A DNA stretch of 58,218 nt, from positions 1 through 58,218 of the IMG/VR virus record IMGVR_UViG_3300025138_000046; one strand, given 5' to 3'. Origin of the DNA: a virus. Its lineage: Duplodnaviria > Caudoviricetes. Position 1 is the first letter of the stretch. Every line of letters begins with the position of its first letter. A program made the position numbers and the translations under genes. Shown here in pieces: positions 14,990-44,491 of this stretch. The notes under the pieces were generated by a model. It searched no databases. It saw nothing but the letters and a program-made list of their open reading frames with translations, and was not told the DNA's origin.

Positions 14990-15259
14990 TTATAACCTAT
15001 CGACGTCGATTCCTAGTACTTTTTTAATAGCAGCTTTAAGTTTCTTCTCGTCTGTTCCCCAATGCTTGCTCATATTATTAAACTTTACTGTGGTTCCTGA
15101 CACATTAACATCACGGCCTGATACATCGTATCCAGCTTTTTTAAATGCAGCTTCTACGTCACGGCCGTATGCTCGGTTTTTAAGCTCGAGTTCAGTTCCT
15201 CTCCAGTATCTAAAATCATATTTAGACAGTTCTTCTTTTAATTGTTTAAAAGTTTTCAT
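14990..15259 (-). CDS. Putative internal head protein (capsid-targeting leader)
   Basis: N-terminus MKTFKQLKEE. Confidence 0.6.
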   Translation of the reverse strand: MKTFKQLKEELSKYDFRYWRGTELELKNRAYGRDVEAAFKKAGYDVSGRDVNVSGTTVKFNNMSKHWGTDEKKLKAAIKKVLGIDVDRL

Positions 15260-15274
15260 ATTTAATCCTTTATC

Positions 15275-15484
15275 TTAATTTTCTTTAACTTCTTTTTTAG
15301 ACTCAGCTGCTTTTCTTCTAGCAAGAATTCTTTCGACAAATCTACGGCCGGCTTTTGTTCTGCCATCGTAAATATCTTTCTTTTTCTTTTTCTTGTCGTG
15401 AACTGCGTCTGATGGCATGTTTACACCACCGCCCCCAACAGAGTTGGCTGCTGCGTCTTCCCATACGTCTCTAAATGTTTTCAT
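15275..15484 (-). CDS. Putative internal head protein
   Basis: MKTFRDVWED leader, AANSVGGG and DGRTK motifs. Confidence 0.6.
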   Translation of the reverse strand: MKTFRDVWEDAAANSVGGGGVNMPSDAVHDKKKKKKDIYDGRTKAGRRFVERILARRKAAESKKEVKEN

Positions 15485-16029
15485 TTTAGTGTTACCTTTC
15501 CTAATTTTTTACCCGCGGCTTTATTAACTTTTATTTTCTTTAATTTTTTACCTTGCGTTTTTACTTTTTGTACTATAGTTAAAAACTTTTTCCATATATT
15601 TTTTATTTTTTTACCATATTTTATATATAGTAGTACAAACATTAAAGTTCCTAATTTTAATTGCCCTGCGAGTGTTAATTTAGATAATATAGTTTTGGCA
15701 ATACCTATAGTAATTGGTATTGCGTGTTCAACACTAAATTCTATTACAAACGCAACCATAGATTCTGTAGTTGCCATTACGGCATCCATATCATAATAAG
15801 CAGCAGTACCATATATGCCAGCGGTGCTTACTACCGGTTTTGTTGCAATTATTTTTGCTGTACCCACGCCGGCCGTACCTACTGCCGTACCTACTGTACC
15901 TACTGCAGCACCTGGAGAGTTTATCGCTTTGACACCCCAGTTACCAACCGATCTTATAACTCCCCACACAACCGGAGCAAAAGCGACCTCATCCAACTGA
16001 GAATGTTCCTTGAATGTCATTACTGTCAT
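15481..16029 (-). CDS. Putative virion protein with hydrophobic segments
   Basis: MTFKEHSQLDE leader, GT(V/A) repeats, hydrophobic helices, Lys-rich tail. Confidence 0.55.
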   Translation of the reverse strand: MTVMTFKEHSQLDEVAFAPVVWGVIRSVGNWGVKAINSPGAAVGTVGTAVGTAGVGTAKIIATKPVVSTAGIYGTAAYYDMDAVMATTESMVAFVIEFSVEHAIPITIGIAKTILSKLTLAGQLKLGTLMFVLLYIKYGKKIKNIWKKFLTIVQKVKTQGKKLKKIKVNKAAGKKLGKVTLK

Positions 16030-16622
16030 CTTTTTATATCCGCACTCGTAATGAGTATTTGTTGCTTAGTTAAAACGTGTTCAACTTGATAGACGTTTAA
16101 GCCAAATATAGAACCAGTAGGTTCTGTAAATTCTGAAACGTTTACCTTTGTATTTATATTTGCTATTATTTCAGCAGTATTTGGTGAGGCAATTTCTTGT
16201 ACTAATATATATTCACCAGGAGCAAGTTGGTTATTTTTATCAAACCAAGATGCACTTTCTGATATATCAATGGATCCATTAAAGTCTCCAAATATATCGT
16301 TTAAAACTTTTTGTAACTGATCATCATCTAAACCAGTTTCTTCTTTTACTAGGAACAACGCAGAAGCATATGTTGCTAACTTAGTACCTAATGAACCAGG
16401 AACTTTATTTAATAATCTTTTAATATTAAATACTAACCTATGAAAAATAGTAAACGCGGACTTTTCTTGAGGCGTTTTTCTGTCAGCCTTTTTCTTAAGT
16501 ATTTTACCGTTATTATCGATAATACCTAATCTATAAGCGTCCATACTTTCCCAAGGTGTTACTAATAGCTTTAGAAACCTAAAGGCATAAAATAGATCAC
16601 CAGTTCTTGAGATTATCCCCAT
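16026..16622 (-). CDS. Conserved T4-like virion/hypothetical protein
   Basis: FRFLKLLVTPW...AY.LGIID..G and FHRLVFNIKRL motifs. Confidence 0.7.
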   Translation of the reverse strand: MGIISRTGDLFYAFRFLKLLVTPWESMDAYRLGIIDNNGKILKKKADRKTPQEKSAFTIFHRLVFNIKRLLNKVPGSLGTKLATYASALFLVKEETGLDDDQLQKVLNDIFGDFNGSIDISESASWFDKNNQLAPGEYILVQEIASPNTAEIIANINTKVNVSEFTEPTGSIFGLNVYQVEHVLTKQQILITSADIKR

Positions 16623-16993
16623 TAAAATTTCCTTAATCTTTCGATTACGTTTTTGTCTAAAGGTATTTCTACCTTATAGTCTTCTTCTATATAATTCAAG
16701 AATACTAAAAATGTTTTTAGTACTGAGTAATGTTCGGGTTCAACTTTAAACCACATCATTCTATCAGCAGCTTTAATACCAAACACATTATATAATACAA
16801 TAATATGATTTAGTATAAGCCTTTCTTGTAAGTCTCCAGATTGTTCATAACGTCTAAGCAGTCTTTTCAGATACTTAAACCTTGTTAAATCATCTTTGAA
16901 CTCTTCTACCTCAATGCATTCCGGATTATTGTAGTGCTGTGCGGCGAAGAGTTCAAAGTTTTTACCAGTCAGTTTGTCAAATATTTTCATCAT
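16622..16993 (-). CDS. Conserved T4-like hypothetical protein
   Basis: Y.NP.C...EF..DL.RFKY and ERLILNH motifs; TATAGATA late-like box at 16998-17005. Confidence 0.7.
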   Translation of the reverse strand: MMKIFDKLTGKNFELFAAQHYNNPECIEVEEFKDDLTRFKYLKRLLRRYEQSGDLQERLILNHIIVLYNVFGIKAADRMMWFKVEPEHYSVLKTFLVFLNYIEEDYKVEIPLDKNVIERLRKF

Positions 16994-17015
16994 ATATTAT
17001 CTATACTAGATAATT

Positions 17016-18263
17016 TTAACTGTATTCTTTTTGCAACTCTTTAAAGGTTTTACCTTCAAATCCCATAAAGTCTTGGAAATACTTAACTAGTTTTTTTTCA
17101 TCACCAGTAAATATACCAGCATCTGAACCCATCATTCCGTCACCTTTACCTTTTTTAAATGAGATTTTAATACCCATTTTCTTAGCTGCTTTGTCACCAC
17201 CAACATTTTTCATTTCATCTGATTCAAAAGATGTTTTGATTTGAGCTTCAGCAATAGTTTCTTCTTTAACTTCTTTCTCGTCATCATCAGTCTTTTTGCC
17301 ATTCTTTTTATCGATTGCTTTCTGAAGAGCAGGAGGTAAAGTTCCTTCATCTTTATCAGTTTCGTTATCAGCTTCATAGTTCTTATCAACGTAGTTAAAG
17401 AATTCTTTCTTCTTCTCGCCTTCTAATTCACCGGGTGAAGTAACACCAAACTTCTTAAGAGCGGACTTAAAGAATTTCTGATATCTTTCTTTATCTTCTT
17501 GCATCTTAGTCTTAACTTTGTTCATAGCATGAGCTTCATCAAGAACTTCTTCAGTAACAGATTCGTTTGCTAGTTGCAAAGCAGCAGCTACTTCGGTATC
17601 CTTAGATAAACCTTTAGCCATTTGCTCAATCTTTTTAATAGCACCAGTCATATTACCACCCATTTTTAAAGCAAGCGCAACAGCTTTTTTAACTTGTGGC
17701 TTTTGAAATTTAGACTTAGCTTCTAAAAGCTCTGGAAATAACTCTTCAATATCATCAGTATCCATAGAGTACAAATTAGATTGTAAAAATGCTAAGATGT
17801 TCTTTTTCTCTCCAGATACATCATAACCATCTCTTGAGTGCTTCTTAAACTTAAGCTTAAATTTCTTTTCAGCGGCAGGAATACCTTCACCAGTATGATC
17901 AATATCAACTTTTACTTTGCCCTTACCAGCTTTTAGTTTAGCTTCGTCAATAGTAATAGTTACTTCTTCTTTAACAACTGTACCGTCTTCTTTTTCACCA
18001 GATTTTTTAACTTTGTGAGCACCTTTAAAGTCTTTTTCGCCTTTAGCTTTTGGCTCACCAGCTTCATCAACTTCTGGTTTGTCATGGGTATAACCCTTAT
18101 CAGCAAGAGCTTTATGCTCTGCTTCGTCTTTGGCTACTTTCTTTTCGCCAGTTTCCGGATGAAACATATCATGTGGATATTTTCCTTCCTCTTTTACTTT
18201 ACCTTCAAGTACATCGCTAACAGCAGCAGCAATGCTCAAAGTAATATCATCTTTAAGTTTCAT
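17016..18263 (-). CDS. Highly charged putative prohead core/internal protein
   Basis: E/K-rich, with many (L/I/V)xE sites resembling gp21 protease cleavage sites; YQ.FF..ALKKFG...FFNYVD motif. Confidence 0.55.
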   Translation of the reverse strand: MKLKDDITLSIAAAVSDVLEGKVKEEGKYPHDMFHPETGEKKVAKDEAEHKALADKGYTHDKPEVDEAGEPKAKGEKDFKGAHKVKKSGEKEDGTVVKEEVTITIDEAKLKAGKGKVKVDIDHTGEGIPAAEKKFKLKFKKHSRDGYDVSGEKKNILAFLQSNLYSMDTDDIEELFPELLEAKSKFQKPQVKKAVALALKMGGNMTGAIKKIEQMAKGLSKDTEVAAALQLANESVTEEVLDEAHAMNKVKTKMQEDKERYQKFFKSALKKFGVTSPGELEGEKKKEFFNYVDKNYEADNETDKDEGTLPPALQKAIDKKNGKKTDDDEKEVKEETIAEAQIKTSFESDEMKNVGGDKAAKKMGIKISFKKGKGDGMMGSDAGIFTGDEKKLVKYFQDFMGFEGKTFKELQKEYS

Positions 18264-18273
18264 ATTAATTCTC

Positions 18274-18573
18274 CTATTTTATGAAAAGCATTCCTGTAAT
18301 AGTCGTGGCCGCAGCTACTAATACTATCCAGAAGATTTTATTTATTACATTGACAGTAGTAGCATTATCGCGTACTGCCATTTCCAACCTATCAACTCTA
18401 TTTATAAGGGCTAATATTTGTTCTCCTTGTTGTTTGCCAAACTCTGCCATCGTGGCGATTTTTTCTTCAGCACGCGCCAAAGAAATGATCGCGTCTGACA
18501 TACGATCAATTTTTTCTTCAATTCTATCCAACCTGGCCGATTGCGCAGCTCTTTGCTCATTAGCTGTTGTCAT
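18274..18573 (-). CDS. Coiled-coil protein with C-terminal TM helix
   Basis: RLDRIEEKID heptads and a hydrophobic C-terminus. Confidence 0.6.
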   Translation of the reverse strand: MTTANEQRAAQSARLDRIEEKIDRMSDAIISLARAEEKIATMAEFGKQQGEQILALINRVDRLEMAVRDNATTVNVINKIFWIVLVAAATTITGMLFIK

Positions 18574-18961
18574 GTTTAAATATCCTAATCTTTAAAGGCG
18601 TTACGCCTTTTATTATTCTATGGTATTCTTCTTTCTTAACGTCAAATACCATACCTTTCTTTAAAAGCCATGGCAAACATTTTTGTAACTGAAATTGCCA
18701 TCCTTCACCATCAAGGATTTCTATTTCCCTATCCTGAATATCACGATGCCATACAAATTCTGCATCATCGCGAGAAGGGTCAAATTCCCTTATATCCGCA
18801 TCTTCCCAATACGGTTTACCAAAAGTAAGATCCACCACCTTTAAGCCCCAAGTCTTTGGCGTATTTAGGCAATCTACATGCCCAATAGCCTGGTTTTGTT
18901 TTATCAGTCTTAGTATCACAGTTATGACGAGCTGCAAAGTTTCTTGCTGCATCTCTATCAT
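18560..18961 (-). CDS. Cupin-like protein (true start probably near 18835)
   Basis: WHRD..DR.I....G.GW and YHRIIKG motifs. Confidence 0.6.
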   Translation of the reverse strand: MIEMQQETLQLVITVILRLIKQNQAIGHVDCLNTPKTWGLKVVDLTFGKPYWEDADIREFDPSRDDAEFVWHRDIQDREIEILDGEGWQFQLQKCLPWLLKKGMVFDVKKEEYHRIIKGVTPLKIRIFKHDNS

Positions 18962-19199
18962 TTATCTTAGATGTTAGACCACCTTTTTCGTCACCAAACT
19001 CAATCTTTTTTACATTTCCCGTCTTAGGGTTTTTTACGTAAACCACATACTTCTTTTTACCACTAGATCTTTTTGGTTTATTGAGTTCTTGCTCTTCACC
19101 AATTTCGATCATAGGTTGTTCTAAAGGTACGTGTTGACCTTCATACAATCCAAATCTTTCGTCAATATGTTCTAGAAAACTATGCATAGTTTTATACAA
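18816..19199 (-). CDS. Putative internal head protein
   Basis: MHSFLEHIDE leader; KKY.VYVK, FGD, F.ARHNC and GYWAC motifs. Confidence 0.65.
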   Translation of the reverse strand: MYKTMHSFLEHIDERFGLYEGQHVPLEQPMIEIGEEQELNKPKRSSGKKKYVVYVKNPKTGNVKKIEFGDEKGGLTSKINDRDAARNFAARHNCDTKTDKTKPGYWACRLPKYAKDLGLKGGGSYFW

Positions 19200-19647
19200 A
19201 CTCCTTCCAAGTTCTTACTATTTTACTCATAACCATTTTAATAGCAGTAAAGTATGCCCATCCAAATCCATAAAATATATGGAATGTATGGTTCTTTTCA
19301 ATTTCAGACTTAGGTCCAAACTTTCTAGTCCAATTGTCAACATACTCACCTTTATATCTTAATACTGCATGAGTTACTTTCCACTTACTTGAACCAACAC
19401 AACAAATGCCAGCCTGGTGAGTTAATAACATCCACCACATTTTAAGATGGCTCTCTCCGCACAATCTGTAAAGTATTGATAAAGAATAATCTTCGCAATC
19501 ACCTACAAACTTACCTTCGGCATCCGGTGAATAAATAATTTTCCAAGAATCGGCGGAGCCGTATTGTGTTTTATCTTTGGCATACTTCCACTTACTAGTG
19601 AATGACCTAACTATTTTATCCCTTGCTTTTAATTCTTCTCTATTCAT
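19192..19647 (-). CDS. Transglutaminase-like cysteine peptidase (BTLCP/C93-like)
   Basis: GDCEDY catalytic Cys motif, HAVL His and DN Asp. Confidence 0.7.
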   Translation of the reverse strand: MNREELKARDKIVRSFTSKWKYAKDKTQYGSADSWKIIYSPDAEGKFVGDCEDYSLSILYRLCGESHLKMWWMLLTHQAGICCVGSSKWKVTHAVLRYKGEYVDNWTRKFGPKSEIEKNHTFHIFYGFGWAYFTAIKMVMSKIVRTWKEFV

Positions 19648-20156
19648 AATTTTACTCCTTTTAATTTTTTCAAGCCCTTTAAAACTTCTGTATAAGCTTT
19701 ATCTAATTCCTTTTTAGCTTTTGCTATTTGAGCTTTTTTCATTGCTTTTTCATCTGCAGCTATGTTTGATAAACGATCCTTTTCGAATTCTATCGTTTCT
19801 TTTGCTGCGTATAAATCTTCTTTGGCTCGTCTAAGATCAGTCAATTTATCAGCTTTACTTTGAGCTTTATCTCGTTTTCTATTTGCAACGTTCTGCTTAG
19901 AATATCGGCTCTTAAGTTTTTTAGCTGCTTTTGCACCTTGCTTTCCACCAAACTTTGCGGCCATTGTACCGTATTTAAGTAAACCCGAAACAGCTTTTAC
20001 GCCTTGGTCAATTACTACAATCAAAGCAGCTTCAGCAGCTCCTTCATTCATATCTAATTGCATAGTAGCTTCATGTAAAGGCATATCTAGAATTTCATCT
20101 AAAGTTTTTGGTTCTATGTGTTCAGCAAATGTTCTCATCTTTGTCCCTTTATCCAT
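19644..20156 (-). CDS. Putative internal head protein (coiled coil)
   Basis: MRTFAEHIE leader at the second Met. Confidence 0.55.
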   Translation of the reverse strand: MDKGTKMRTFAEHIEPKTLDEILDMPLHEATMQLDMNEGAAEAALIVVIDQGVKAVSGLLKYGTMAAKFGGKQGAKAAKKLKSRYSKQNVANRKRDKAQSKADKLTDLRRAKEDLYAAKETIEFEKDRLSNIAADEKAMKKAQIAKAKKELDKAYTEVLKGLKKLKGVKL

Positions 20157-20809
20157 TTTATTGCAATGGCGTTTTCTGGAGCTTTAGCAGCCCAGGTTTT
20201 TATTTTCTTAAAAGCGTTTAGTGCAGCACTATCAATATCAGATCCTTTCGAATTATCCACAACAATCATTCTTTGTCTAAATAAACCTTGAAACTTACCA
20301 ATATTCTTCTGTACATCTTTCCACATTTTACTTACCATATCATCTGGTAACGAGCGTGGTCGCATTTTATTTCTTTCTAATGCTGTATCTAAATCTGTAT
20401 TAACAAAAATCATATGTACAGAATATCCAATAGTTCTTAACATATCAACTTGCTTTTTAATTTTAGAATAGTCTTTACCAGTACCGTCAATAACAATACC
20501 CATTCTACCTTCTAAAGCTCTCATCATAATTCTACCAGTGATAGCTTTAGCTTTTGCTCTTACAGATTGGCCTTGAGCTGAGGCTATATCTTCTGGATCA
20601 GTAGTTAATTTAGCATTTTTTAATCCTTTTTCAAAAGCATCATCTGAATTTATCAATCTAAATCCAAGAGCTTTCAGTGCAGTCTTACCTACAACAAATG
20701 ATTTACCAGAACCTGGTCCACCTGCTAGGAATACTGCTTTAAAAATAGAAGGATCATTCACACCTTCCATTAAATCAAAGTGTTGTTTAAAGTTATCCAC
20801 CGAATTCAT
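20135..20809 (-). CDS. P-loop kinase (zeta-toxin/Pnk/AAA_33-like)
   Basis: AGGPGSGKS, NSDD.FE, IDGTG and R...R.R motifs; NFKQHFDLME leader. Confidence 0.8.
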   Translation of the reverse strand: MNSVDNFKQHFDLMEGVNDPSIFKAVFLAGGPGSGKSFVVGKTALKALGFRLINSDDAFEKGLKNAKLTTDPEDIASAQGQSVRAKAKAITGRIMMRALEGRMGIVIDGTGKDYSKIKKQVDMLRTIGYSVHMIFVNTDLDTALERNKMRPRSLPDDMVSKMWKDVQKNIGKFQGLFRQRMIVVDNSKGSDIDSAALNAFKKIKTWAAKAPENAIAIKWIKGQR

Positions 20810-21032
20810 GTCCTGCGACTCTTTTCATTTGCTTTTTAAATTCAGCAAAATCTGGTTTACTTTTGTAAAGCTTAATAGAGATCTCATTTCTATCTTTACC
20901 CTTAATTCTCCACTTATAACCTTTATCTAAATGTTCTGGCTTTGTAGTCTTTACTACTCTACGTTTAAATCCATCTTCCCAAGGTTCACTCTTACCTGTA
21001 CCTTCAGTATAATATTCCGCAAAGGTTTTCAT
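20793..21032 (-). CDS. Putative internal head protein
   Basis: MKTFAEYYTE leader. Confidence 0.6.
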   Translation of the reverse strand: MKTFAEYYTEGTGKSEPWEDGFKRRVVKTTKPEHLDKGYKWRIKGKDRNEISIKLYKSKPDFAEFKKQMKRVAGHEFGG

Positions 21033-21316
21033 TTCTTTAAGTCGTACCTGTATGTTTTACCTTTTGCTTGGCCGTCCTTTGTAATTTTAAACTTAGCAAT
21101 ACGAGCTAGGTTGTTAACTACTTCTAATTTACCTTTAGACATATCCTTTTGTAACTCTGGTTTTACTTTCTTCCAGATAGTATCTAATATATCTGAATCA
21201 GACATTACTAATGGACCTTCGCTCATAGCAGATTCTGAAAGCTTTTTATCCTTGGCATTCTGAAGAGACTCGGTAGCAGCCTTTTGTCTTCTTAAAATTT
21301 CATGGAAAGTATTCAT
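21029..21316 (-). CDS. Putative internal head protein
   Basis: MNTFHEI leader. Confidence 0.55.
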   Translation of the reverse strand: MNTFHEILRRQKAATESLQNAKDKKLSESAMSEGPLVMSDSDILDTIWKKVKPELQKDMSKGKLEVVNNLARIAKFKITKDGQAKGKTYRYDLKK

Positions 21317-21317
21317 C

Positions 21318-21776
21318 TTACTTTTTTTCCTTGGCCATCATAGCAGCAATTTTCATTAACGTCTTTTTGTCTTTATCAGATATTTTATCTAATTGCTTTT
21401 TCTTAGCAATATCTTCTAGTGACTTTGCCCATGAAGCTGAGGATTCTTCAACGTTTTCAAATTTAAGCCTTAATGCTTTTAATAACTCTTTCTTGTATCG
21501 TGCAAATAAATCACTACCGGAATCTTTAAAGAAATCTGTCTTTACGCCTTTATGAAAAGGGCCTGGTTTGTGATATTTTTTAATAATAGTATATCCAGTA
21601 TCTGACATCCAATCATTAAAATCATCTTCCGTTTTAAGTTTACTTACAGATTTTTTTGCAGTTCTGATTAAATCAGATGCAGCCTTTTTACTATAAGGCT
21701 CGTCATCCATCCAATTTTCGTTAACCGATTCAGAATGAGTGTTATAGTTAGTTCTCAATTCTTTAAAATTTTTCAT
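21318..21776 (-). CDS. Putative internal head protein
   Basis: MKNFKELR leader. Confidence 0.55.
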   Translation of the reverse strand: MKNFKELRTNYNTHSESVNENWMDDEPYSKKAASDLIRTAKKSVSKLKTEDDFNDWMSDTGYTIIKKYHKPGPFHKGVKTDFFKDSGSDLFARYKKELLKALRLKFENVEESSASWAKSLEDIAKKKQLDKISDKDKKTLMKIAAMMAKEKK

Positions 21777-22024
21777 TTTACCATTCCTCTTACTTCTTTT
21801 TTAGATAACCCATATACGTCAACCAACCATTTTTCTAAACCTCTTTTATCTCTACTCATGACAACAAGTTCGTTTTCTCTCTTGTCCCAAGTATCGATAT
21901 AAACTCCATCAGATTCCCAATCATCAGCGTATTCTCTTGGATCACCCATGTCAAAATCCAACGCAACTTTAAAATTTCTTTCTAAAATTGTTTGGCTTTC
22001 TCTTATTTCTTTAAACGTTTTCAT
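21773..22024 (-). CDS. Putative internal head protein
   Basis: MKTFKEIRE leader. Confidence 0.6.
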   Translation of the reverse strand: MKTFKEIRESQTILERNFKVALDFDMGDPREYADDWESDGVYIDTWDKRENELVVMSRDKRGLEKWLVDVYGLSKKEVRGMVK

Positions 22025-23211
22025 TAACTTCCCCTTACTTTAGCGGCTAGGTCTTTATCAGCCCCGCCCCATGTTCCTTTTGATTTTGTCGCGAACGAAT
22101 TAACTCTTGCTAATCCCCACTGTGTTGGATTTGTTCCAGGTCTATGACTTGAACTCCAAGCTGCATATCCTCTATCGAATACTTTCTTCAATATACCATA
22201 TGGCATACCTGTTTTATCAGCTTTATTTTGAAGTGCTTTCTTTGCATCAGCTTCTTCTAAAGACTGAGAGAAGCTTTTCATTTCTCCAAACTTCTTTTTA
22301 AAATCTTTTGTGTGATCGCTTTCAGGAGCATTTGGTCTTGGCTTATCGTGTTTAGCCTTTTGTTTAGCATCCATATCAGAATACTTCTTTTCTCCTAAAT
22401 GCTCTACATCATCTAACCAAACTCGTTTCTTCCATTCACCGAATTCAACTACTAAAAAGTTAGTACCGCACCTTTGAATAACACCAACCTGATTTGTTTC
22501 TTTTAAAACGACTTCGTCACCTTCCTTAAACAGATTACCTTTTACAAACTTTTCTCTTTTCTCTGATACAGGTTCTAGTTGTGTATGCTTTCTAGCAGAT
22601 TCTTTTTTAAGGCCCATGCCTTTTCTTATAGCATAGTATAGAGTTTGTATTCCGTCACCTGGAATTTCTAACGATGCATCTGCAAAGCCTTGAAGATCAC
22701 CTGCAGCAACTAAAGCTCTAAGTTTAGAAGCAGACATTCCTTTAACACCTTCAGCTTCTGGATCTCTTTCTCCTGCAGAAACTACTTTTATTTCATTTTC
22801 AAAATTATAAAAGCCGTGTCTTGAATCTACACCATTATACTTATTTAAAAGCACTTCAAATTCTTTTAGTCTGTCTGAACCAGCAACCATTGTAACCGAT
22901 GTAAAACCTTGCTTATATAACTTAACACAAATGTCTAATGCTGTTCTTACATCGCTATCCGCCATAATGCTTCTTGCGTGTTTTGGAAACATTTTGCGCA
23001 AAAATTTAATTTTATCTTTAAATGTTAACGGATTCTTTTTAGCGTCTTGTGATTTTGAAGCATATACTCTATACGGATTACTTCCTGCGGTTTTCTTTAA
23101 TTTGTCAAATAACTTTGCATGACCTGGTGTTGGCGGATTAAACCTACCAAAGACGAAATAGACTTCGCCCTTTGCCTCGCTTAAATATTGACTAAAACTC
23201 TTAAATTCCAT
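22024..23211 (-). CDS. HxGH-superfamily nucleotidyltransferase (cytidyltransferase-like) with extra C-terminal domains
   Basis: FGRFNPPTPGH, KNPL, GSDR and SASKLR motifs; FKSFSQYLSE leader. Confidence 0.85.
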   Translation of the reverse strand: MEFKSFSQYLSEAKGEVYFVFGRFNPPTPGHAKLFDKLKKTAGSNPYRVYASKSQDAKKNPLTFKDKIKFLRKMFPKHARSIMADSDVRTALDICVKLYKQGFTSVTMVAGSDRLKEFEVLLNKYNGVDSRHGFYNFENEIKVVSAGERDPEAEGVKGMSASKLRALVAAGDLQGFADASLEIPGDGIQTLYYAIRKGMGLKKESARKHTQLEPVSEKREKFVKGNLFKEGDEVVLKETNQVGVIQRCGTNFLVVEFGEWKKRVWLDDVEHLGEKKYSDMDAKQKAKHDKPRPNAPESDHTKDFKKKFGEMKSFSQSLEEADAKKALQNKADKTGMPYGILKKVFDRGYAAWSSSHRPGTNPTQWGLARVNSFATKSKGTWGGADKDLAAKVRGS

Positions 23212-23616
23212 TTACTTCTCACCTTTATCTTTTAATTTTGCTCTGTCTTTTTTCTTAATTCCTGGTAACATTTTCTTAGCGATTTTAGAAATCATTCCTT
23301 TCTTATTGGCTAACTTTTTTTCGATACCAGCACGTGCTGCAAAAGAAAGATCAGCTTTACTTTTGCCTTTTAACATTTTTTTGATTAGGAATTCCCTGGC
23401 TGCCTTATTGGCACGGGATTTAAGTTTTTCTGGGGAGGCAAGTTTTTTCGCAGCTTTCTTTTTACCAAGTGCGATCTTTGCTTTGTTCTTGCGAAATGAA
23501 GCTTTCATTTTCATTCTGTGTGCTAATGACATAGCCTCCGAAAAGTCTACGGTTTCATTAGTTAGATCTGCGTCGTGTTCTTTAAACGATTTCATTGTTA
23601 TCCTCGGTATCCCCAT
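23212..23616 (-). CDS. Lys-rich putative internal head protein
   Basis: MKSFKEH leader at the second Met; very basic body. Confidence 0.6.
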   Translation of the reverse strand: MGIPRITMKSFKEHDADLTNETVDFSEAMSLAHRMKMKASFRKNKAKIALGKKKAAKKLASPEKLKSRANKAAREFLIKKMLKGKSKADLSFAARAGIEKKLANKKGMISKIAKKMLPGIKKKDRAKLKDKGEK

Positions 23617-23617
23617 A

Positions 23618-24883
23618 TCAGTTAGGATTATCCCAACCTTTTATAATATCTTTGCTGAAGTTATTAGTAGAAAATTCTAATCTATCAACAAGCTTTACTG
23701 CTCCACCTTCCATACGATCTATAGCAACAAAACCCTCAGGGTTGGTCACTTTAAATCCGGACTTAGTCTTCACAAACGTACCAATTTTACTTAGTCTGTT
23801 TAGTTTATTTATAATAATTAATTTGCTATCCACAACTAAATTTTGTAAATCGAACACATTTTGTAAACTTTTTATGTTAGATTTGCTAAAAAATTGTAAT
23901 AATTGATCACGTTTTACTATTTGAATATCTTTACCTTTTTGACTGCTTCTCTTATCAATTTCTTTTTGGTATCTAGTATTTACCCACATTACTAATCCTG
24001 TTGCATGCTTCTTAGTATCGGTAATTCTCTGCCCTGATCTCACTTTAGTGTTATTATAAACGTTAATAAGTAAGTTTAATTCCCTGTTAGATTCTAATTC
24101 TTTCAGCGTAGAACCTGATATCTTTTTAAACATTTTACCAGCATCAGACAACTTTTTATTAAGCTCATCTGTTTCTTGTTTTGTTAATGTTGCTGTTCCG
24201 GAAAGATCATCTAGTGTTGCATCCTGCATCCAAACATCTTTCGACGGTTTAAGTTTAGTGACTATTGATCTGCCAAACTCAGCTCTCATTGTTTCAAATG
24301 TACCACCGTTATAAACCGTGTGCCATACGATACCGATCTTAGCTCTTGAAATTTCTTTTGCTAATGCAGTTGATGTTGGAACTGCATAAGCGATTGTATT
24401 AGGATGAAATACTATGTGCTTTACTCCACCAATATTTTCAGTTTTGAGGTCAGACTTATCAAACATGAAGTCACCTTGTATAACGCCTTTAATTCCTAAA
24501 GGCTGTAAATAATCAAAGGCCATTTTTAATTTTTTAGAAAGATCTCCAGAAGTATCAGCATCAATATCTGCATGAGATTTATATACCTTAGGATTAGAAT
24601 TAAAGATTCCTTTTTTAGCAACAAAGAATTGTCCATCTCTTGGATCTTCTCCAGCAAATACGGCGGGGGCACCGTCCCATTTTACGGTAACGTCTACTGC
24701 AGATTTTGCATTACCCGATAACATATCTCGCAACGACCTAAGCGCGAGGATAGCTTGGCGCGCCCCCTTAACTCCACCGTCAAGAATAAGATCCTCAATA
24801 TGAATCATATGAGTGTTCTTACCTGCGGCCTCCGATAATTGATTTTTAAATGATTTTATAACTTTCGTCAAATTTGATTTCAT
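23618..24883 (-). CDS. ATP-dependent ligase-like covalent nucleotidyltransferase
   Basis: TVKWDG (motif I KxDG), IQGDF (motif III-like), EGFV (motif IV) and VKLV (motif V); KSFKNQLSE leader. Confidence 0.6.
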   Translation of the reverse strand: MKSNLTKVIKSFKNQLSEAAGKNTHMIHIEDLILDGGVKGARQAILALRSLRDMLSGNAKSAVDVTVKWDGAPAVFAGEDPRDGQFFVAKKGIFNSNPKVYKSHADIDADTSGDLSKKLKMAFDYLQPLGIKGVIQGDFMFDKSDLKTENIGGVKHIVFHPNTIAYAVPTSTALAKEISRAKIGIVWHTVYNGGTFETMRAEFGRSIVTKLKPSKDVWMQDATLDDLSGTATLTKQETDELNKKLSDAGKMFKKISGSTLKELESNRELNLLINVYNNTKVRSGQRITDTKKHATGLVMWVNTRYQKEIDKRSSQKGKDIQIVKRDQLLQFFSKSNIKSLQNVFDLQNLVVDSKLIIINKLNRLSKIGTFVKTKSGFKVTNPEGFVAIDRMEGGAVKLVDRLEFSTNNFSKDIIKGWDNPN

Positions 24884-26256
24884 TATTGATATACCTTCAC
24901 GTACGCGCTAGAATCTTCTGATTTAGATCCCGCATAGTTTATAATTTTAGTTATCCAACGATTTGCTTTAGTGCCGCTGTTTTTATCAACGTAATATAAG
25001 ACATATAAACACGCTAGCTTTGAACCTATCCAATAAACGTCTTTTAATAACAATTCTTTTTCAAAGTTTTCATATGAATCATTTTTATAAAAATTGTTAT
25101 ACATTTCATAAAATATTTTAATAGATCTTTTATCTTTTTTAAGAATACTCTTAGCTATTTTATTAATGACTTTATTGTCGGGTATTTTCTTTCCAAAAAC
25201 CGACTTTATACCTTCTGCCATAATTCCGTATCCGGCACCGCCGCCTCTCGATGTTTTCATTCTGATTTCTGCTTTAATAGCTCCTCCAGCAGATCCAGCC
25301 CTTAGGTCAAGCTTACCAGCGTCAAATATAACAGTAGCACCTTTATTAGACCAAAAGGTTCCTCTAAGTTCTCCTTGGAACATTATAGTTTTTATCTTAT
25401 GGTCGTCAGTATCAGGCGGTAATTTAATATTGTACTCTTTAGCTTTAGCAGTTTTCTTAACAAGCTTTAATGATATTCCGACCAAGTCTCTATCAACAAA
25501 TGCTTGTAACAATGCTTTATTATAAGCTGCTATACTTTCGGTGCTAAGAGTTGACAATTTATAACTTTTATTAACGGCCCAGATATCTCCAGGGTTCCAC
25601 TTATCATCTTTAACAGGTTTTTGATCAGAATTTTTATATGCGACATTCTTCATTGCATATACTGTATTCATTAATTTACTTGCTCTATGAAATGTCTGCG
25701 ACTTATTTATGTAACCGTTTTTAATAAGAATTACTGCGGATTCATATGATGAATGGAACCATCCATCTTCGACTGATAATACTTCATCTAAAGTAGCATC
25801 GACATAAACTCTATTATATGCAGCTTTAAGAATATTGTGATTCATAAAGAATTCTTCGTCTTGCATTCCGTTGTCTAACATAGCTTGACACATAACACAT
25901 TGATGAGATTCTGTGATTTTAGTATTGAGAGTTCCGCCGCCAGCTCCACCTCCACCTCCAAATACTTTACTCTTTCCTAGATCGGAAGAGCTTATCATTT
26001 TATCGCCACCTATGAGAGTAAAGGGTTTTTTTAGTTTTTTGAATATTTCAATTGAAGTTATAGCATTTTCTATATCAGTTACTTTAAATACTCCGCCTTT
26101 AGCCAATTCAAGGGGCTTTCCGTCTTTTATAAGACGTGCTAAAATATCTATTCTGTCTATACCAGTATTAGCATTTGGTTTTAACAATTCGGATGGAGTT
26201 AGCTTTACGGCTTCTTGAAGTTCTTCGATTTGTTCGAAATATCTTAAGCTTTTCAT
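24883..26256 (-). CDS. Putative PD-(D/E)XK nuclease
   Basis: T.ITES, DKWNPGDIW and LVGISLK motifs; first gene of the cluster. Confidence 0.55.
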   Translation of the reverse strand: MKSLRYFEQIEELQEAVKLTPSELLKPNANTGIDRIDILARLIKDGKPLELAKGGVFKVTDIENAITSIEIFKKLKKPFTLIGGDKMISSSDLGKSKVFGGGGGAGGGTLNTKITESHQCVMCQAMLDNGMQDEEFFMNHNILKAAYNRVYVDATLDEVLSVEDGWFHSSYESAVILIKNGYINKSQTFHRASKLMNTVYAMKNVAYKNSDQKPVKDDKWNPGDIWAVNKSYKLSTLSTESIAAYNKALLQAFVDRDLVGISLKLVKKTAKAKEYNIKLPPDTDDHKIKTIMFQGELRGTFWSNKGATVIFDAGKLDLRAGSAGGAIKAEIRMKTSRGGGAGYGIMAEGIKSVFGKKIPDNKVINKIAKSILKKDKRSIKIFYEMYNNFYKNDSYENFEKELLLKDVYWIGSKLACLYVLYYVDKNSGTKANRWITKIINYAGSKSEDSSAYVKVYQ

Positions 26257-26292: not shown

Positions 26293-26322
26293 ATTATAAC
26301 ACCCTTATCAATAAATGTACAA
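26293..26322 (-). promoter_or_regulatory. Early promoter
   Basis: TTGTACA-17-TATAAT. Confidence 0.75.
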
Positions 26323-26325
26323 TAC

Positions 26326-26333
26326 TATTTATA
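26326..26333 (-). promoter_or_regulatory. Late promoter TATAAATA (internal-protein cluster)
   Basis: Exact motif, intergenic, in tandem with the early promoter. Confidence 0.75.
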
Positions 26334-27251: not shown

Positions 27252-27281
27252 ATTATACCATACTTTTAAGGTTTTGTACAC
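27252..27281 (-). promoter_or_regulatory. Early promoter
   Basis: GTGTACA-17-TATAAT. Confidence 0.8.
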
Positions 27282-27895: not shown

Positions 27896-28000
27896 CCTTA
27901 TCTTTAATATGGTACCATTATACCACACTTATAAGGCTTTGTACACCTTTTTTTGAAAAAAAGTGTATATTTTTTATATCTATTTGTTATATGTAATTAT
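27896..28000. repeat. Promoter/leader cassette, copy 1 (imperfect ~105 bp repeat)
   Basis: CCTTATCTTTAATATGGTACCATTATACCAC...TGTACACCTTTTTTT...TTTTATATCTATTT is shared with 51763-51867. Confidence 0.85.
27917..27946 (-). promoter_or_regulatory. Early promoter
   Basis: GTGTACA-17-TATAAT. Confidence 0.8.
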
Positions 28001-28002
28001 GT

Positions 28003-28662
28003 TTATATAACGTCGTCAAGCGGGAATATTTGGTATATTGCCTCAGCACATGCCTTAGCTATCTCTTGATGTTCTTTCTGAGTACCATTAGCAGATCGTA
28101 ATTGTATATAATGAATCCAAGATCTTAGTGTTCCATTCACGTACATACGAGACATTGTCAAACCTTCAGGTAAAATTGCTCGTGCCTGTTCCTTTGCAAT
28201 ACCTGCGTTTATTGCCCAATCATATGCGTGTTTACAACGCTCAATAATGACTTCTTGATATGATTCCCATATATGATGTATAGAATCTTCCATAGGAATA
28301 TCAACGGAGTTTTGTCGATTTTTGTTATCTTGCATCCGAGCATCTCTCGTCACAAAGGTTAAATCTTTAGTAGGATCAGCATACCGCTGACTAAATTCCT
28401 GAAAAGAAAAAGATCGATGTCTAAGAATTTGTCTTGCGATATCCCGGGTTGTATCAATTTCCATACAGACACTGGCCATCTCAAGAGGTGACCAGTGCTG
28501 ATGTTTAATCAAATATTTAACTAATTTCTCTGCGGTTTCTTCATTATTTTGGTTACTAGGATTCGACACCCTAGCGCAATATGCTACCATTTGTAACAAA
28601 TCATCTTTCAAATCAACGCCAATTGCTGGCTTACTATACGAAACTACACGAACCTTAAACAT
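28003..28662 (-). CDS. thyX: Flavin-dependent thymidylate synthase
   Basis: HWSPLE, RHRSFSFQEFSQRY, EQAR..LP and TQ.EH motifs. Confidence 0.95.
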   Translation of the reverse strand: MFKVRVVSYSKPAIGVDLKDDLLQMVAYCARVSNPSNQNNEETAEKLVKYLIKHQHWSPLEMASVCMEIDTTRDIARQILRHRSFSFQEFSQRYADPTKDLTFVTRDARMQDNKNRQNSVDIPMEDSIHHIWESYQEVIIERCKHAYDWAINAGIAKEQARAILPEGLTMSRMYVNGTLRSWIHYIQLRSANGTQKEHQEIAKACAEAIYQIFPLDDVI

Positions 28663-28679: not shown

Positions 28680-29309
28680 TTAGAAATTAAGAGTTAAGTT
28701 TATTGCGGCTGAATCCATAAATGTGCCTGATCTTACTCCATCCATTACCATTAATCCAATCGTTAGATTTTCTGTTACGGGCTTTGCGATCATCAACATC
28801 ACATGAGACATTTCAGTTTCAGCAACTTTATGTTCAGCATATCCAATTGACACATTAGCTGCTTTAATAAATGGCAATGCTTGTGATACTTCTAAATAAC
28901 TTAGATGTGCATCAACAGTATTGCGGTAATATTTCATACTTGTGTTTTTCCAAGAAGCTCCAAAATAAACTTCTTCGAAAGGATCATAATCACTACCATC
29001 AAAGTTATATTGAATAACACCCAAGTCTACACTAATATCGTCAGTTAAATCCGTGCTGTAACCAGCATAAAAATCATATTCAACATTAGCCGTGTCGCCA
29101 TAATCTACTTCACTGGCCCATGCTCCAGCATAAAAACCTGATTCATGGTTATAATCTATACCTGCTTGTAAAGCAACATTTCCTGCATTTTGTGACATGC
29201 CTCTCCAAAAATAATCTGAAGTGACCGAAACATTATATGAAGTATCTGCTTGAGCGGTAAACGATGTTACCATTAAAAGAGAGCATAAGAATGTTTTTAA
29301 ACTATTCAC
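28680..29309 (-). CDS. TorF-family putative outer-membrane porin (TIGR02001-like)
   Basis: Signal peptide ending AQA, SDYFWRG.SQ...ALQAG.DY, GFYAGAW and a C-terminal Phe; GTG start with AGGAG RBS. Confidence 0.8.
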   Translation of the reverse strand: MNSLKTFLCSLLMVTSFTAQADTSYNVSVTSDYFWRGMSQNAGNVALQAGIDYNHESGFYAGAWASEVDYGDTANVEYDFYAGYSTDLTDDISVDLGVIQYNFDGSDYDPFEEVYFGASWKNTSMKYYRNTVDAHLSYLEVSQALPFIKAANVSIGYAEHKVAETEMSHVMLMIAKPVTENLTIGLMVMDGVRSGTFMDSAAINLTLNF

Positions 29310-29470
29310 TACGCTTCTCCTTTTACTAGAGTATATATACCCCACGCCAAACCTGCCCATGCTACTAGTTTAGCAATACCGCCAAACAACACGACTGAGC
29401 CGCATACCACGATGAGTGACACCCCATCCAAGGAAGTTCTTTCTTTGATTCTATCTTTTATCCAATTCAT
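29309..29470 (-). CDS. Small two-TM membrane protein (53 aa)
   Basis: Hand-translated MNWIKDRIKERTSLDGVSLIVVCG...; AGGAG RBS. Confidence 0.65.
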   Translation of the reverse strand: MNWIKDRIKERTSLDGVSLIVVCGSVVLFGGIAKLVAWAGLAWGIYTLVKGEA

Positions 29471-36843: not shown

Positions 36844-37500
36844 TTATACTACTAAATCAAAATGACGTTCGTAAACGTGTAGGTTTTGTACTTGCCAATG
36901 GATTTGACCAACGTCAACTCCGAGCTCATCGGCTAATTCCCCAAGAACATATTCTTGCCAAGCATAATCATTGCGGTAACCAAATATTACATCATTAGAT
37001 CTCATTTGAACTACACATTCTAATACATCGTCTCGTATATAATACGTAACTGCATTAGTGCATATAAAATCGTTCTTTTCATTTTCATACCACTCGTGCC
37101 AAATAGAAGGTCTTTGATATACCATACTAGCTCTACGCGAATCTCTATTTCTAGTAAGTTCTAGTACAACTTGTTCAAATTGATTATGATACTTTTCACT
37201 GAAAATTAAGTGTCCGTAATTTGAATTAATTTCGCCATGATCATTAGCAGTCATTTTCCATGCTTCCGGTGGTTCACGCTCACCACGATAAATATCGTTA
37301 ATATTTGTAGATTGATGTATATACCAATCTATTTCAGCGTCGATGTAATGTTTGTTGGGTTTGCCAAAAATAGCAGGTTCGTCAGCAACAAAGGATGCAC
37401 CGATTAACTCAATAGTTTTACCGCCATTTCTGTCTTCGGTAAACATTTTGTTTAAAAGTCTGGCTTTAAATAAACCTCGAATTTCGCTTATACTATTCAT
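36844..37500 (-). CDS. 42: dCMP hydroxymethylase-like thymidylate-synthase-family protein (gp42)
   Basis: TIELIGASFVADEP, EINSNYG, DSRR, DFICTN, MRSNDVIFGYRNDYAWQ and LHVY match recalled T4 gp42 motifs, including the dCMP-specifying Asp. Confidence 0.85.
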   Translation of the reverse strand: MNSISEIRGLFKARLLNKMFTEDRNGGKTIELIGASFVADEPAIFGKPNKHYIDAEIDWYIHQSTNINDIYRGEREPPEAWKMTANDHGEINSNYGHLIFSEKYHNQFEQVVLELTRNRDSRRASMVYQRPSIWHEWYENEKNDFICTNAVTYYIRDDVLECVVQMRSNDVIFGYRNDYAWQEYVLGELADELGVDVGQIHWQVQNLHVYERHFDLVV

Positions 37501-44483: not shown

Positions 44484-44491
44484 TATTTATA
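44484..44491 (-). promoter_or_regulatory. Late promoter TATAAATA (hsp20)
   Basis: Exact motif, intergenic. Confidence 0.75.

Follow-up and report, generated by a model that had tools for sequence, protein, structure and literature searches.

The virus record IMGVR_UViG_3300025138_000046 (positions 1 to 58,218, the stretch of 58,218 nucleotides analyzed here and referred to as the window) raises the question of why genes for a ligase-like protein, a kinase and a nucleotidyltransferase should lie together in a densely packed minus-strand block, at 14990-26256, in which many genes open with similar short peptides. The window is part of a marine T4-like myovirus. PHROG scans name in it a T4-type replication and recombination set (UvsX, UvsY, the gp41 helicase, the gp43 polymerase and the gp44 clamp loader), together with the gp45 clamp, gp46/47, the late sigma factor gp55, NrdA/B and ThyX, and its closest annotated phages belong to the Kyanoviridae and their allies (C48C1, Methylophilales phage Melnitz, Pelagibacter phage HTVC008M and many cyanomyoviruses). 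All long open-reading frames (ORFs) are carried by the minus strand, and the record comprises the 58 kb window alone, which has no head genes. The original prediction had proposed that a ligase-like protein, a kinase, a nucleotidyltransferase and a nuclease encoded between 20135 and 26256 all bear leaders resembling the capsid-targeting sequence of T4 and form a packaged, co-injected repair or anti-defence kit. We see an even chance that the enzymes of the block are a head-packaged, injected set for healing and sealing nucleic-acid ends, marked by a T4-type tag. The ligase fold, the kinase, the transferase, the leaders and the tagged virion proteins of relatives speak for the proposed kit; its nuclease assignment found no support. 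The ORFs stand at the predicted coordinates. The argument turns on the following features, in which a slash marks the predicted cut behind a leader.

24883..26256, minus strand: 457-residue protein (phrog_1462), with a weak leader, MKSLRYFEQIEELQE/A, and a glycine-rich linker near residues 100-108.
23618..24883, minus strand: DUF6267 ligase-like covalent nucleotidyltransferase, with leader IKSFKNQLSE/A at residues 9-18 and putative nucleotidyl-lysine K68.
23212..23616, minus strand: small lysine-rich protein, with leader MKSFKEHDADL from the Met at 23595.
22285..23211, minus strand: HxGH (TPGH) nucleotidyltransferase part of the 395-residue ORF 22024-23211, with leader MEFKSFSQYLSE/A.
22249..22281, minus strand: second leader inside that ORF, MKSFSQSLEEA, starting at residue 311 and immediately preceding the DUF5824 module.
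22024..22284, minus strand: DUF5824 module, fused in frame to the transferase (PF19141, E-value 2.9e-13, residues 310-386).
20135..20809, minus strand: P-loop kinase of the AAA_33, Zeta and polynucleotide kinase (PNK)-like clade, with a weak leader, NFKQHFDLME/G.

The ligase-like protein belongs to the Pfam family DUF6267 (PF19782, E-value 1.2e-102), which comprises 2,653 clusters at 50% identity and 460 phage records. Its call as a ligase had been based on the ordered motifs KWDG (residues 68-71), QGD (136-138), EGFV (383-386) and VK (396-397), and these prove to be the most conserved columns in an alignment of 109 family members: G71, D138, G384 and K397 are invariant, and K68, D70, Q136, G137, E383, V386, H25, H28, H188, T189 and R401 are conserved in at least 90% of them. 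The KxDG feature of motif I is thus present as K68-W-D70-G71, with K68 as the putative nucleotidyl-lysine, and QGD, EGFV and K397 follow it, conserved, in motif order; QGD, EGFV and VK would correspond to ligase motifs III, IV and V. A conserved H-x-x-H-x-E-D element lies toward the N-terminus.

The AlphaFold2 model computed from the 109-member alignment is confident (predicted local distance difference test, pLDDT, 93.2; predicted template modelling score, pTM, 0.90) and has a ligase fold, so the motif-based call is borne out at the level of the model. In the VIA-wide search of 48,161 chains, which is independent of Foldseek, the top 14 rows are all ligases (Z 8.6 to 6.2), ranks 1 to 9 being RNA ligases: NgrRnl at Z 8.6 (root-mean-square deviation, rmsd, 3.5 over 183 aligned residues), the trypanosome ligase REL1 at 8.3, the tRNA ligase Trl1 at 8.2, T4 Rnl2 at 7.8 and T4 Rnl1 at 7.7; the tool itself rates values of Z around 8 as middling. 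DNA ligases rank lower, at Z 6.3 to 5.4. When the best 1,000 chains from Foldseek were re-scored, all 50 of the 50 rows listed were ligases, the best being again NgrRnl (Z 8.9, rmsd 3.7, 184 aligned; model residues 22-410 on chain residues 143-338). Among the BFVD viral models, the first matches beyond the family are RNA ligases of phage Atu_ph07 (E-value 6.9e-3) and of giant viruses, followed by capping enzymes. The case for a ligase fold rests on this uniformity of ligase matches together with the conserved KxDG lysine.

The predicted domain is split, as a helical insert of about 130 residues (helices spanning 235-362) interrupts the nucleotidyltransferase domain, and no OB domain was found in the model, which after K397 has only about 20 residues, with a short helix (401-409) and no OB-like strands. 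To our knowledge, all known DNA ligases have an OB domain after the nucleotidyltransferase domain; as modelled, DUF6267 is in this respect built like RNA ligases and not like DNA ligases. The Pfam scan returned no match of the protein to the ligase families PF01068 and PF01653.

The kinase call for 20135-20809 agrees with Pfam matches to AAA_33 (48.6 bits, cut-off 27) and Zeta_toxin (45.3 bits) and with a Walker A motif, GPGSGKS. Weaker matches extend to phrog_505, annotated as polynucleotide kinase (E-value 1.8e-10), and to L-seryl-tRNA(Sec) kinase (PSTK; E-value 0.001); those to T4 PNK chains are weak (E-values 0.09 to 0.35), and the score against TIGR04075 (18.5) is far under its cut-off of 750. 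Likewise, the assignment of 22024-23211 to the HxGH nucleotidyltransferases is upheld by PF01467 (CTP_transf_like, 24.8 bits, cut-off 21), by matches to phrog_3041 and phrog_395, annotated as cytidyltransferase (E-values down to 4e-78), and by the motif FGRFNPPTPGH, in which T28, G30 and H31 are invariant among 23 homologues. Annotated cytidyltransferases of cyanomyoviruses align with it at 36-41% identity (tblastn). Searches of solved structures with the sequence and with a profile of the 23 homologues reached no solved HxGH enzyme, and an Atlas search returned viral CTP_transf_like clusters only; from its sequence, the transferase is a phage-specific branch of the HxGH nucleotidyltransferases. 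The further suggestion of an NMN adenylyltransferase (NMNAT) serving NAD+ synthesis finds little support beyond the enzyme class, the NCBIfam models NadD (TIGR00482) and NadR (TIGR01526) scoring 15.2 against a cut-off of 112.45 (E-value 0.016) and 13.5 against 341.15 (E-value 0.032), respectively. A complex prediction of DUF6267 (residues 20-421) with the transferase domain (14-215), run twice without controls, gave no answer (score 0.00).

For the 457-residue protein at 24883-26256, the proposed PD-(D/E)XK nuclease assignment found no support. The protein has no Pfam match, its only PHROG match is to phrog_1462, of unknown function, and a sequence search against solved structures found nothing. 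Its model is confident (pLDDT 89.4, pTM 0.68), yet when searched whole, the only form in which it was searched, it gave no fold match in Foldseek against the PDB (best E-value 0.24) and, in the VIA-wide search, a best Z of 3.9 to CARD, FF and PX domains, which is not credible; no nuclease ranked in these searches of the whole 457-residue model. A conserved D224 and S262-L-K264 can be read as a PD...xK pattern, and the nearest named clusters in the Atlas are restriction enzymes, at 0.82, under the trust level of the tool.

The ligase-like protein, the kinase and the transferase are linked by gene fusion and gene order. We surveyed all 24 representatives longer than 500 residues among 150 listed DUF6267 representatives. 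Eight are fusions of DUF6267 with the transferase, in either order (P0124, P0193, P0215, P0216, P0230, P0253, P0255 and P0270); another, P0123, joins DUF6267 to a kinase that is 51% identical to that of the window; and P0122 joins it to a homologue of the gene at 18816-19199. The C-terminal end of P0124 carries a homologue of 20793-21032, the PHROG 455 profile is itself a DUF6267-transferase fusion, and S-PM2 encodes a fusion of 591 residues. Adjacency tells a similar story: HTVC008M has the order gp127 (DUF6267), gp128, gp129 (kinase) and gp130 (transferase), and C48C1, Melnitz-3 and DLP6 share a conserved cassette in which the upstream protein is followed by DUF6267, a small basic protein and the transferase; a homologue of the small lysine-rich gene 23212-23616 lies between DUF6267 and transferase in C48C1, Melnitz and DLP6. 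Because the three are fused or adjacent, DUF6267, kinase and transferase probably form one pathway, as far as gene context can tell.

The second component of the argument is the leader. Reading the N-termini of the minus-strand gene run from 14990 to 24883 reveals starts of the form M-K-[TSN]-F-x-E, and we scored this signal with a matrix trained solely on the 11 N-terminal residues of DUF6267 homologues that other phages encode, of which 47 in 108 start M..F. Within the first 12 residues, a score of at least 2.5 is reached by 8 of 19 block genes and by 2 of 75 genes outside (Fisher 2.4e-5), and a score of at least 7 by 5 of 19 against none of 75; these 94 genes are non-overlapping, the overlap filter having dropped one leader gene, 18816-19199 (score 7.5). 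The eight best of 649 in-frame minus-strand ATG sites are seven gene starts in 14990-23595 and one site inside the transferase ORF, and that internal site, MKSFSQSLEEA at residue 311, scores best of all 649. The transferase start scores 22.9 and DUF6267 13.5. At the end of the propeptide, each of the four enzymes carries [LIVM]xE and then A or G, within residues 12-18 (LSE/A, LSE/A, LME/G and LQE/A), and [LIVM]xE[AGS] occurs in the first 24 residues of 6 of the 19 genes in the block and of 6 of the 75 elsewhere (p 0.013). The predicted cut falls just ahead of the folded domain: in DUF6267 the model leaves the leader unstructured, with a pLDDT below 50 at residues 1-4 and 13-19, and in the transferase four residues separate the cut from the first strand, the one with the GRFNPP motif. 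Applied beyond gene starts, the matrix was dropped as unspecific.

Leader codons vary synonymously among the genes, and selection therefore acts on the peptide rather than on the DNA. The tag is also modular, being present in 70 of 108 DUF6267 homologues; 19 of the 108 are too short at the start to hold one. In the window copy of DUF6267, the Met codon that opens the MKTFKNQLSEA or MKSFK... start of close homologues reads ATA (Ile; 24835-24883); the start must therefore lie eight codons upstream, at ATG AAA TCA AAT..., a start that, from its sequence, looks like a partial duplicate of the leader start.

The leader resembles that of T4. In the T4 record NC_000866, internal proteins (IPs) IPII and IPIII start MKTYQEFIAEA and IPI starts MKTFKEFTSTT, and the marine matrix gives them scores of 7.8, 7.8 and 10.2, respectively. 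The T4 propeptides span 10-19 residues, for IPIII the 10 N-terminal residues are enough to bring about packaging, and genetics places targeting mainly at residues 4 and 7 and processing at residues 8 and 10 (PMC9026906). The strongest matrix columns are 4 (F), 6 (Q), 7 (F/Y), 10 (E) and 8 (L), and thus include all four positions picked out by T4 genetics. Judged by sequence, the window leader is a non-random N-terminal module matching the T4 capsid-targeting sequence. The resemblance claimed in the original prediction is hence confirmed, strongly for the transferase and DUF6267 and weakly for the kinase and the 457-residue protein, and it is the range that needed correction, the leader block extending over 14990-26256, with about 20 genes, and not merely over 20135-26256.

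Tags also occur inside fused proteins. Some fusion junctions carry one (P0123, MGKTFTDFITEQ; P0255, NRFKELLTEA), and fusions of this kind would amount to polyproteins that the prohead protease processes. C48C1 encodes the DUF5824 module as a gene of its own, which starts MITFKKYLEE, and the 395-residue ORF 22024-23211 of the window looks, from its sequence, like two tagged genes fused into a polyprotein. In Melnitz-3, all four cassette proteins have leaders.

Published virion proteomes of relatives allow the leader to be compared with packaging. On the public record of cyanophage S-CREM2 we called 214 ORFs, which account for 50 of the 52 virion proteins listed (all but ORFs 145 and 174). Among ORFs with a leader score of at least 2.5, 7 of 12 are virion proteins, against 43 of the 202 others (p 0.008); at a threshold of 5, the figures are 5 of 7 and 45 of 207 (p 0.008). 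The virion list includes a S-adenosylmethionine (SAM) hydrolase, an APH/ChoK-like kinase and a cytidylyltransferase (PMC10665884, Table 3), whose leaders are MKDFDSFLEEFD, VKRFDAFLTEEE and MKNFSSFLTEADE, respectively; ORF13 and ORF136 are among the other leader-bearing virion proteins, and a Cas9-like nuclease carries LRFASFMAEA 17 residues in. These leader matches are the "non-structural" virion proteins that puzzled the proteome authors in the available part of their paper, in which the words targeting, propeptide, N-terminal and leader do not occur (PMC10665884). Both cyanophage proteome papers, in their available parts, leave undecided whether enzymes such as the cytidylyltransferase are cargo or contamination (PMC10665884, PMC9602691).

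A "putative citidylyltransferase (T4-GC190)" was found in purified S-SM1 virions (Sullivan et al. 2010, PMC3037559), and we find that it starts MKKFSAFLNEAE. The supplement of the same paper also flags 149421-150842 and 150844-151332 of S-SM1 by proteomics (PMC3037559), and the latter protein starts MLSFKELQEKK. With a further member of the family reported in S-SCSM1 virions (PMC9602691), the transferase is a known virion protein in three cyanophages: S-SM1, S-SCSM1 and S-CREM2.

As a separate observation on S-CREM2, its ORFs 6 and 12-15 (the SAM hydrolase, the Cas9-like nuclease, ORF13, the APH/ChoK kinase and ORF15) are leader-bearing and virion-associated, and on sequence grounds they constitute a candidate second cargo block with candidate anti-defence enzymes.

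The remainder of the window block is made up largely of small genes. Throughout the block, neighbours abut or overlap (gaps of -17 to +22 nt, excluding one overlap of -146 nt that is an artefact of start choice); the ORF of the 457-residue protein overlaps the start of the DUF6267 ORF by 1 nt.

21773-22024, minus strand: small leader gene, MKTFKEIRE.
21318-21776, minus strand: small leader gene, MKNFKELRT.
21029-21316, minus strand: small leader gene, MNTFHEIL.
20793-21032, minus strand: small leader gene, MKTFAEYYTE.
19644-20156, minus strand: leader gene, MRTFAEHIE from the Met at 20138.
19192-19647, minus strand: gene with a weak Peptidase_C93 match.
18816-19199, minus strand: leader gene, MHSFLEHIDE from the Met at 19187.
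18274-18573, minus strand: further block gene.
17016-18263, minus strand: acidic 415-residue protein with VLE/G.
16026-16622 and 16622-16993, minus strand: conserved gene pair phrog_18642 and phrog_407, without leader.
14990-15259, 15275-15484 and 15481-16029, minus strand: leader genes, in the rest of the packed block (14990..18573).

The phrog_18642/phrog_407 pair accompanies the cargo block in C48C1, S-SM1 (GC198), HTVC008M (gp140/141) and S-CREM2 (ORF159). Elsewhere in the window there are two thymidylate-synthase-type genes, a ThyX-like one at 28003-28662 (phrog_85) and a ThyA-like one at 36844-37500 (phrog_160); the latter could be a pyrimidine hydroxymethylase, hinting at modified DNA. 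A 226-residue ORF between thyX and the helicase gene (28680-29360) has no PHROG match, and its composition looks like that of a secreted or outer-membrane protein.

Two candidate expression signals precede the block.

26326..26333, minus strand: TATAAATA, a box resembling T4-type late promoters, about 70 nt upstream of the first block gene; its promoter function is putative.
26293..26321, minus strand: sigma-70-like promoter into the block, TGTACA-17-(TG)TATAAT, with 10 of 12 consensus matches.

The coding (minus) strand accounts for all 15 matches to TATAAATA in the window, the plus strand for none; the total does not exceed what shuffles give (mean 11.2), and several matches lie just upstream of gene starts (e.g. 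1949-1956, 26326-26333 and 44484-44491). The TGTACA-17-TG-TATAAT architecture recurs at 27252-27280 and 27917-27945 (minus strand), ahead of small ORFs, and the three sites are possibly early promoters of this phage. Both early and late expression of the block is possible on this pattern. A paper on P-HM2 infection says nothing in its main text about when the orthologues are expressed.

Combining these elements, we propose that 14990-26256 is the internal-protein, or capsid cargo, region of a marine T4-like myovirus. Many of its genes would open with a propeptide of 10-18 residues, M-K-[ST]-F-x-[QE]-[FY]-L-x-E, the counterpart of the T4 tag, which would bind the scaffolding core of the prohead and be removed after [LI]-x-E by a gp21-type prohead protease, leaving mature proteins that would exit the head with the DNA at infection. 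The cargo would include a three-enzyme module made up of DUF6267, with K68 as nucleotidyl-lysine, the PNK-like P-loop kinase and the phage-specific HxGH transferase. Very early in infection the module may phosphorylate and seal broken nucleic-acid ends (RNA or nicked duplex), undoing damage by host nucleases, with the HxGH enzyme supplying or transferring a nucleotidyl group. We infer from the evidence above that the proteins of this phage are packaged, cleaved and injected, as well as their substrates and their role against defences; RNA repair by the module would be an analogy. A fuller claim we advance only tentatively: that DUF6267 is a new ligase family (with a split domain, no OB domain and an HxxHxED element), that with the kinase and the transferase it makes up a virion-delivered end-healing and sealing machine, and that the tag predicts the injected proteome of the Kyanoviridae.

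Several observations weigh against this proposal. On the side of the fold, Foldseek searches of the PDB with the DUF6267 model gave mostly DNA ligases at a best E-value of 0.14, none at or below 0.001; sequence and profile searches of solved structures reached no solved ligase; and hhalign aligned the family with T4 Rnl2 over only 10 columns (EGFV on EGYV, probability 0.14). On the side of the leader, the scores are low for the kinase (1.1) and the 457-residue protein (1.4), their families showing the tag pattern nonetheless (P0123 starts MLSFAEHIKDIDEG, and the consensus of the 457-residue family starts MxxFxxF). The matrix applied at any position gave 48 matches against 34.9 expected in shuffles (maximum 47) and is hence unspecific away from gene starts, and in S-CREM2 a gp46-type nuclease has a high leader score and is not in virions. 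The virion evidence is confined to relatives of the phage in the window. DUF6267 itself (T4-GC71) carries no proteomics flag in the available part of the table that lists it in all 16 cyanomyovirus genomes (PMC3037559), and it is not among the S-CREM2 virion proteins listed in the available part of that study (PMC10665884); because the protein is leaderless in both S-SM1 and S-CREM2, its absence from these lists is weak evidence either way. No prohead protease gene was found in the 58 kb window, which has no head genes; relatives do encode one of the gp21 type (ORF143 in S-CREM2; T4-GC129, which the table gives for each of its 26 genomes). In the block, the Pfam and PHROG scans turned up neither a 2',3'-cyclic phosphodiesterase nor a 3'-phosphatase, and without a 3'-end-healing enzyme an RNA-repair set of the T4 or Trl1 kind would be incomplete. 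We know of no precedent for an HxGH enzyme in end repair. Finally, given the sigma-70-like promoter into the block, expression need not be late only.

The main rival to packaged end healing takes DUF6267 to be the missing replicative ligase of marine T4-like phages, sealing nicks between Okazaki fragments with the help of the kinase and the transferase, and regards the leader as secondary or irrelevant. A review finds no g30 DNA ligase homologues in cyanomyoviruses and notes that distant ones may be unrecognised (PMC2984593), and T4-GC71 is universal among the 16 cyanomyoviruses of the Sullivan et al. (2010) table. Consistent with such a replacement, PF01068 and PF01653 are absent from five of six DUF6267 phages examined (C48C1, S-SM1, HTVC008M, S-CREM2 and Melnitz-3) and T4 shows the reverse, with PF01068 and no DUF6267; the sixth, however, DLP6, combines DUF6267 with a PF01068 ligase. 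The gene has replication genes around it and lies downstream of a sigma-70-like promoter, and its cyanophage versions are leaderless and unreported in virions, yet the leader is present on 70 of the 108 homologues, and DUF6267 occurs fused to the transferase, which relatives carry in their virions. Even the fold can be read in two ways: its nearest match, NgrRnl, is titled a nick-sealing ligase, whereas RNA ligases outrank DNA ligases (Z 8.9-7.7 against at most 6.8) and the model, which ends about 20 residues after motif V, has no OB domain. We regard this explanation as unlikely. A strict either/or between DUF6267 and a canonical DNA ligase was rejected, as DLP6 has both, and the cargo and replicative readings could be compatible if a tagged precursor acts in the cell and is then packaged.

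Two further explanations concern the partners and the tag. NadR combines an HxGH domain with a P-loop kinase, and the kinase and HxGH enzyme of the block might by the same token form a two-step route, from nucleoside to mononucleotide and on to dinucleotide, by which NAD+ or a cofactor akin to it is restored as infection begins, whether to counter defences that deplete NAD+ or to supply the ligase. The virion protein is termed NMNAT-like in two cyanophage papers, which also speculate about NAD+ (PMC9602691, PMC10665884). The NadD and NadR matches that would favour such a route (E-values 0.016 and 0.032) are the very ones that score 15.2 against 112 and 13.5 against 341; the profile of 23 homologues finds no solved HxGH enzyme, and the Atlas gives viral CTP_transf_like clusters only. 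Moreover, the kinase matches PSTK, PNK and zeta-type kinases and not ribosylnicotinamide kinase, and the repeated fusion to a ligase-fold protein is left unexplained, which makes this route quite improbable in our estimation. It is more improbable still that the shared N-termini are a translation-initiation or recombination motif and that the proteins act only inside the infected cell. That explanation would suit a hyperplastic region whose small genes carry the motif at their starts, the chance matches of the matrix to unrelated sites and virion evidence that comes from relatives and not from this phage. It fits poorly with a peptide that is kept while its codons vary synonymously, that persists internally at fusion junctions, where it is useless for initiation, that coincides with the T4 targeting and processing residues, and that predicts virion proteins in S-CREM2.

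If the proposal of packaged, tagged cargo is true, M-K-x-F-x-x-[FY]-L-x-E is an address label from which the injected proteome could be predicted for any Kyanoviridae genome or contig, and in S-CREM2 that proteome would include the SAM hydrolase, kinases and the Cas9-like nuclease. T4-like cyanophages and pelagiphages are among the most numerous marine viruses, and their injected proteins are known from few proteomes. A tag held in common with T4 would settle whether virion enzymes are cargo or contamination, and would let candidate injected effectors be listed from hundreds of genomes. Independently of the tag, the ligase fold of DUF6267 provides a lead on the function of a core gene of unknown function, and it bears on why marine T4-like phages show no recognisable ligase in the review cited above (PMC2984593). 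If true, an end-healing machine would be present in the most abundant myoviruses of the ocean.

Among known systems, the internal proteins of T4 are the closest to the leader block. Both have propeptides of 10-19 residues (MKTYQEFIAE/A and MKTFKEF...ITE/A in T4; MKTFKEIRE/S and ...FKSFSQYLSE/A in the window), with aromatic residues at 4 and 7 and [LI]xE at 8-10, and in both a variable cargo stands behind a constant tag (PMC3012670, PMC9026906). The T4 internal proteins are small and basic; the window, in contrast, has about 14 tagged genes in one block, and its predicted cargo comprises large enzymes (ligase fold, kinase and HxGH transferase) as well as internally tagged in-frame fusions.

The predicted enzyme module compares best with T4 Pnkp and Rnl1/Rnl2, with the fungal and plant Trl1 (ligase, kinase and cyclic phosphodiesterase) and with the bacterial Pnkp/Hen1, all of which likewise combine a ligase-fold enzyme with a PNK-like P-loop domain (fused in P0123), and Trl1, Rnl1 and Rnl2 are among the structural neighbours of DUF6267. 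It differs from them in that no phosphatase or cyclic phosphodiesterase partner was found, its third partner being the HxGH transferase, in its capsid-targeting leaders and in having no sequence-level similarity to those ligases. The best structural match of the DUF6267 nucleotidyltransferase domain is the Naegleria gruberi ligase NgrRnl, of the family named Rnl5, at 13% identity; DUF6267 has the helical insert of about 130 residues and the N-terminal H-x-x-H-x-E-D, and NgrRnl has a separate N-terminal domain.

The cyanomyovirus virion proteins named cytidylyltransferase or NMNAT-like are the same family as the window transferase, and the papers describing them, in their available parts, mention no targeting leader and no link to DUF6267 or to the kinase. 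Full-text literature searches, which left subscription journals mostly uncovered, found no paper on DUF6267 or PF19782 and, for "capsid targeting sequence" with "cyanophage", a T4 review only. The T4 tag and its internal proteins are textbook knowledge, and the cyanophage cytidylyltransferase in virions is published; what appears to be new is that the tag is recognised in marine T4-like phages, where it has predictive value, that DUF6267 has a ligase fold, and that fusions support a module of three enzymes.

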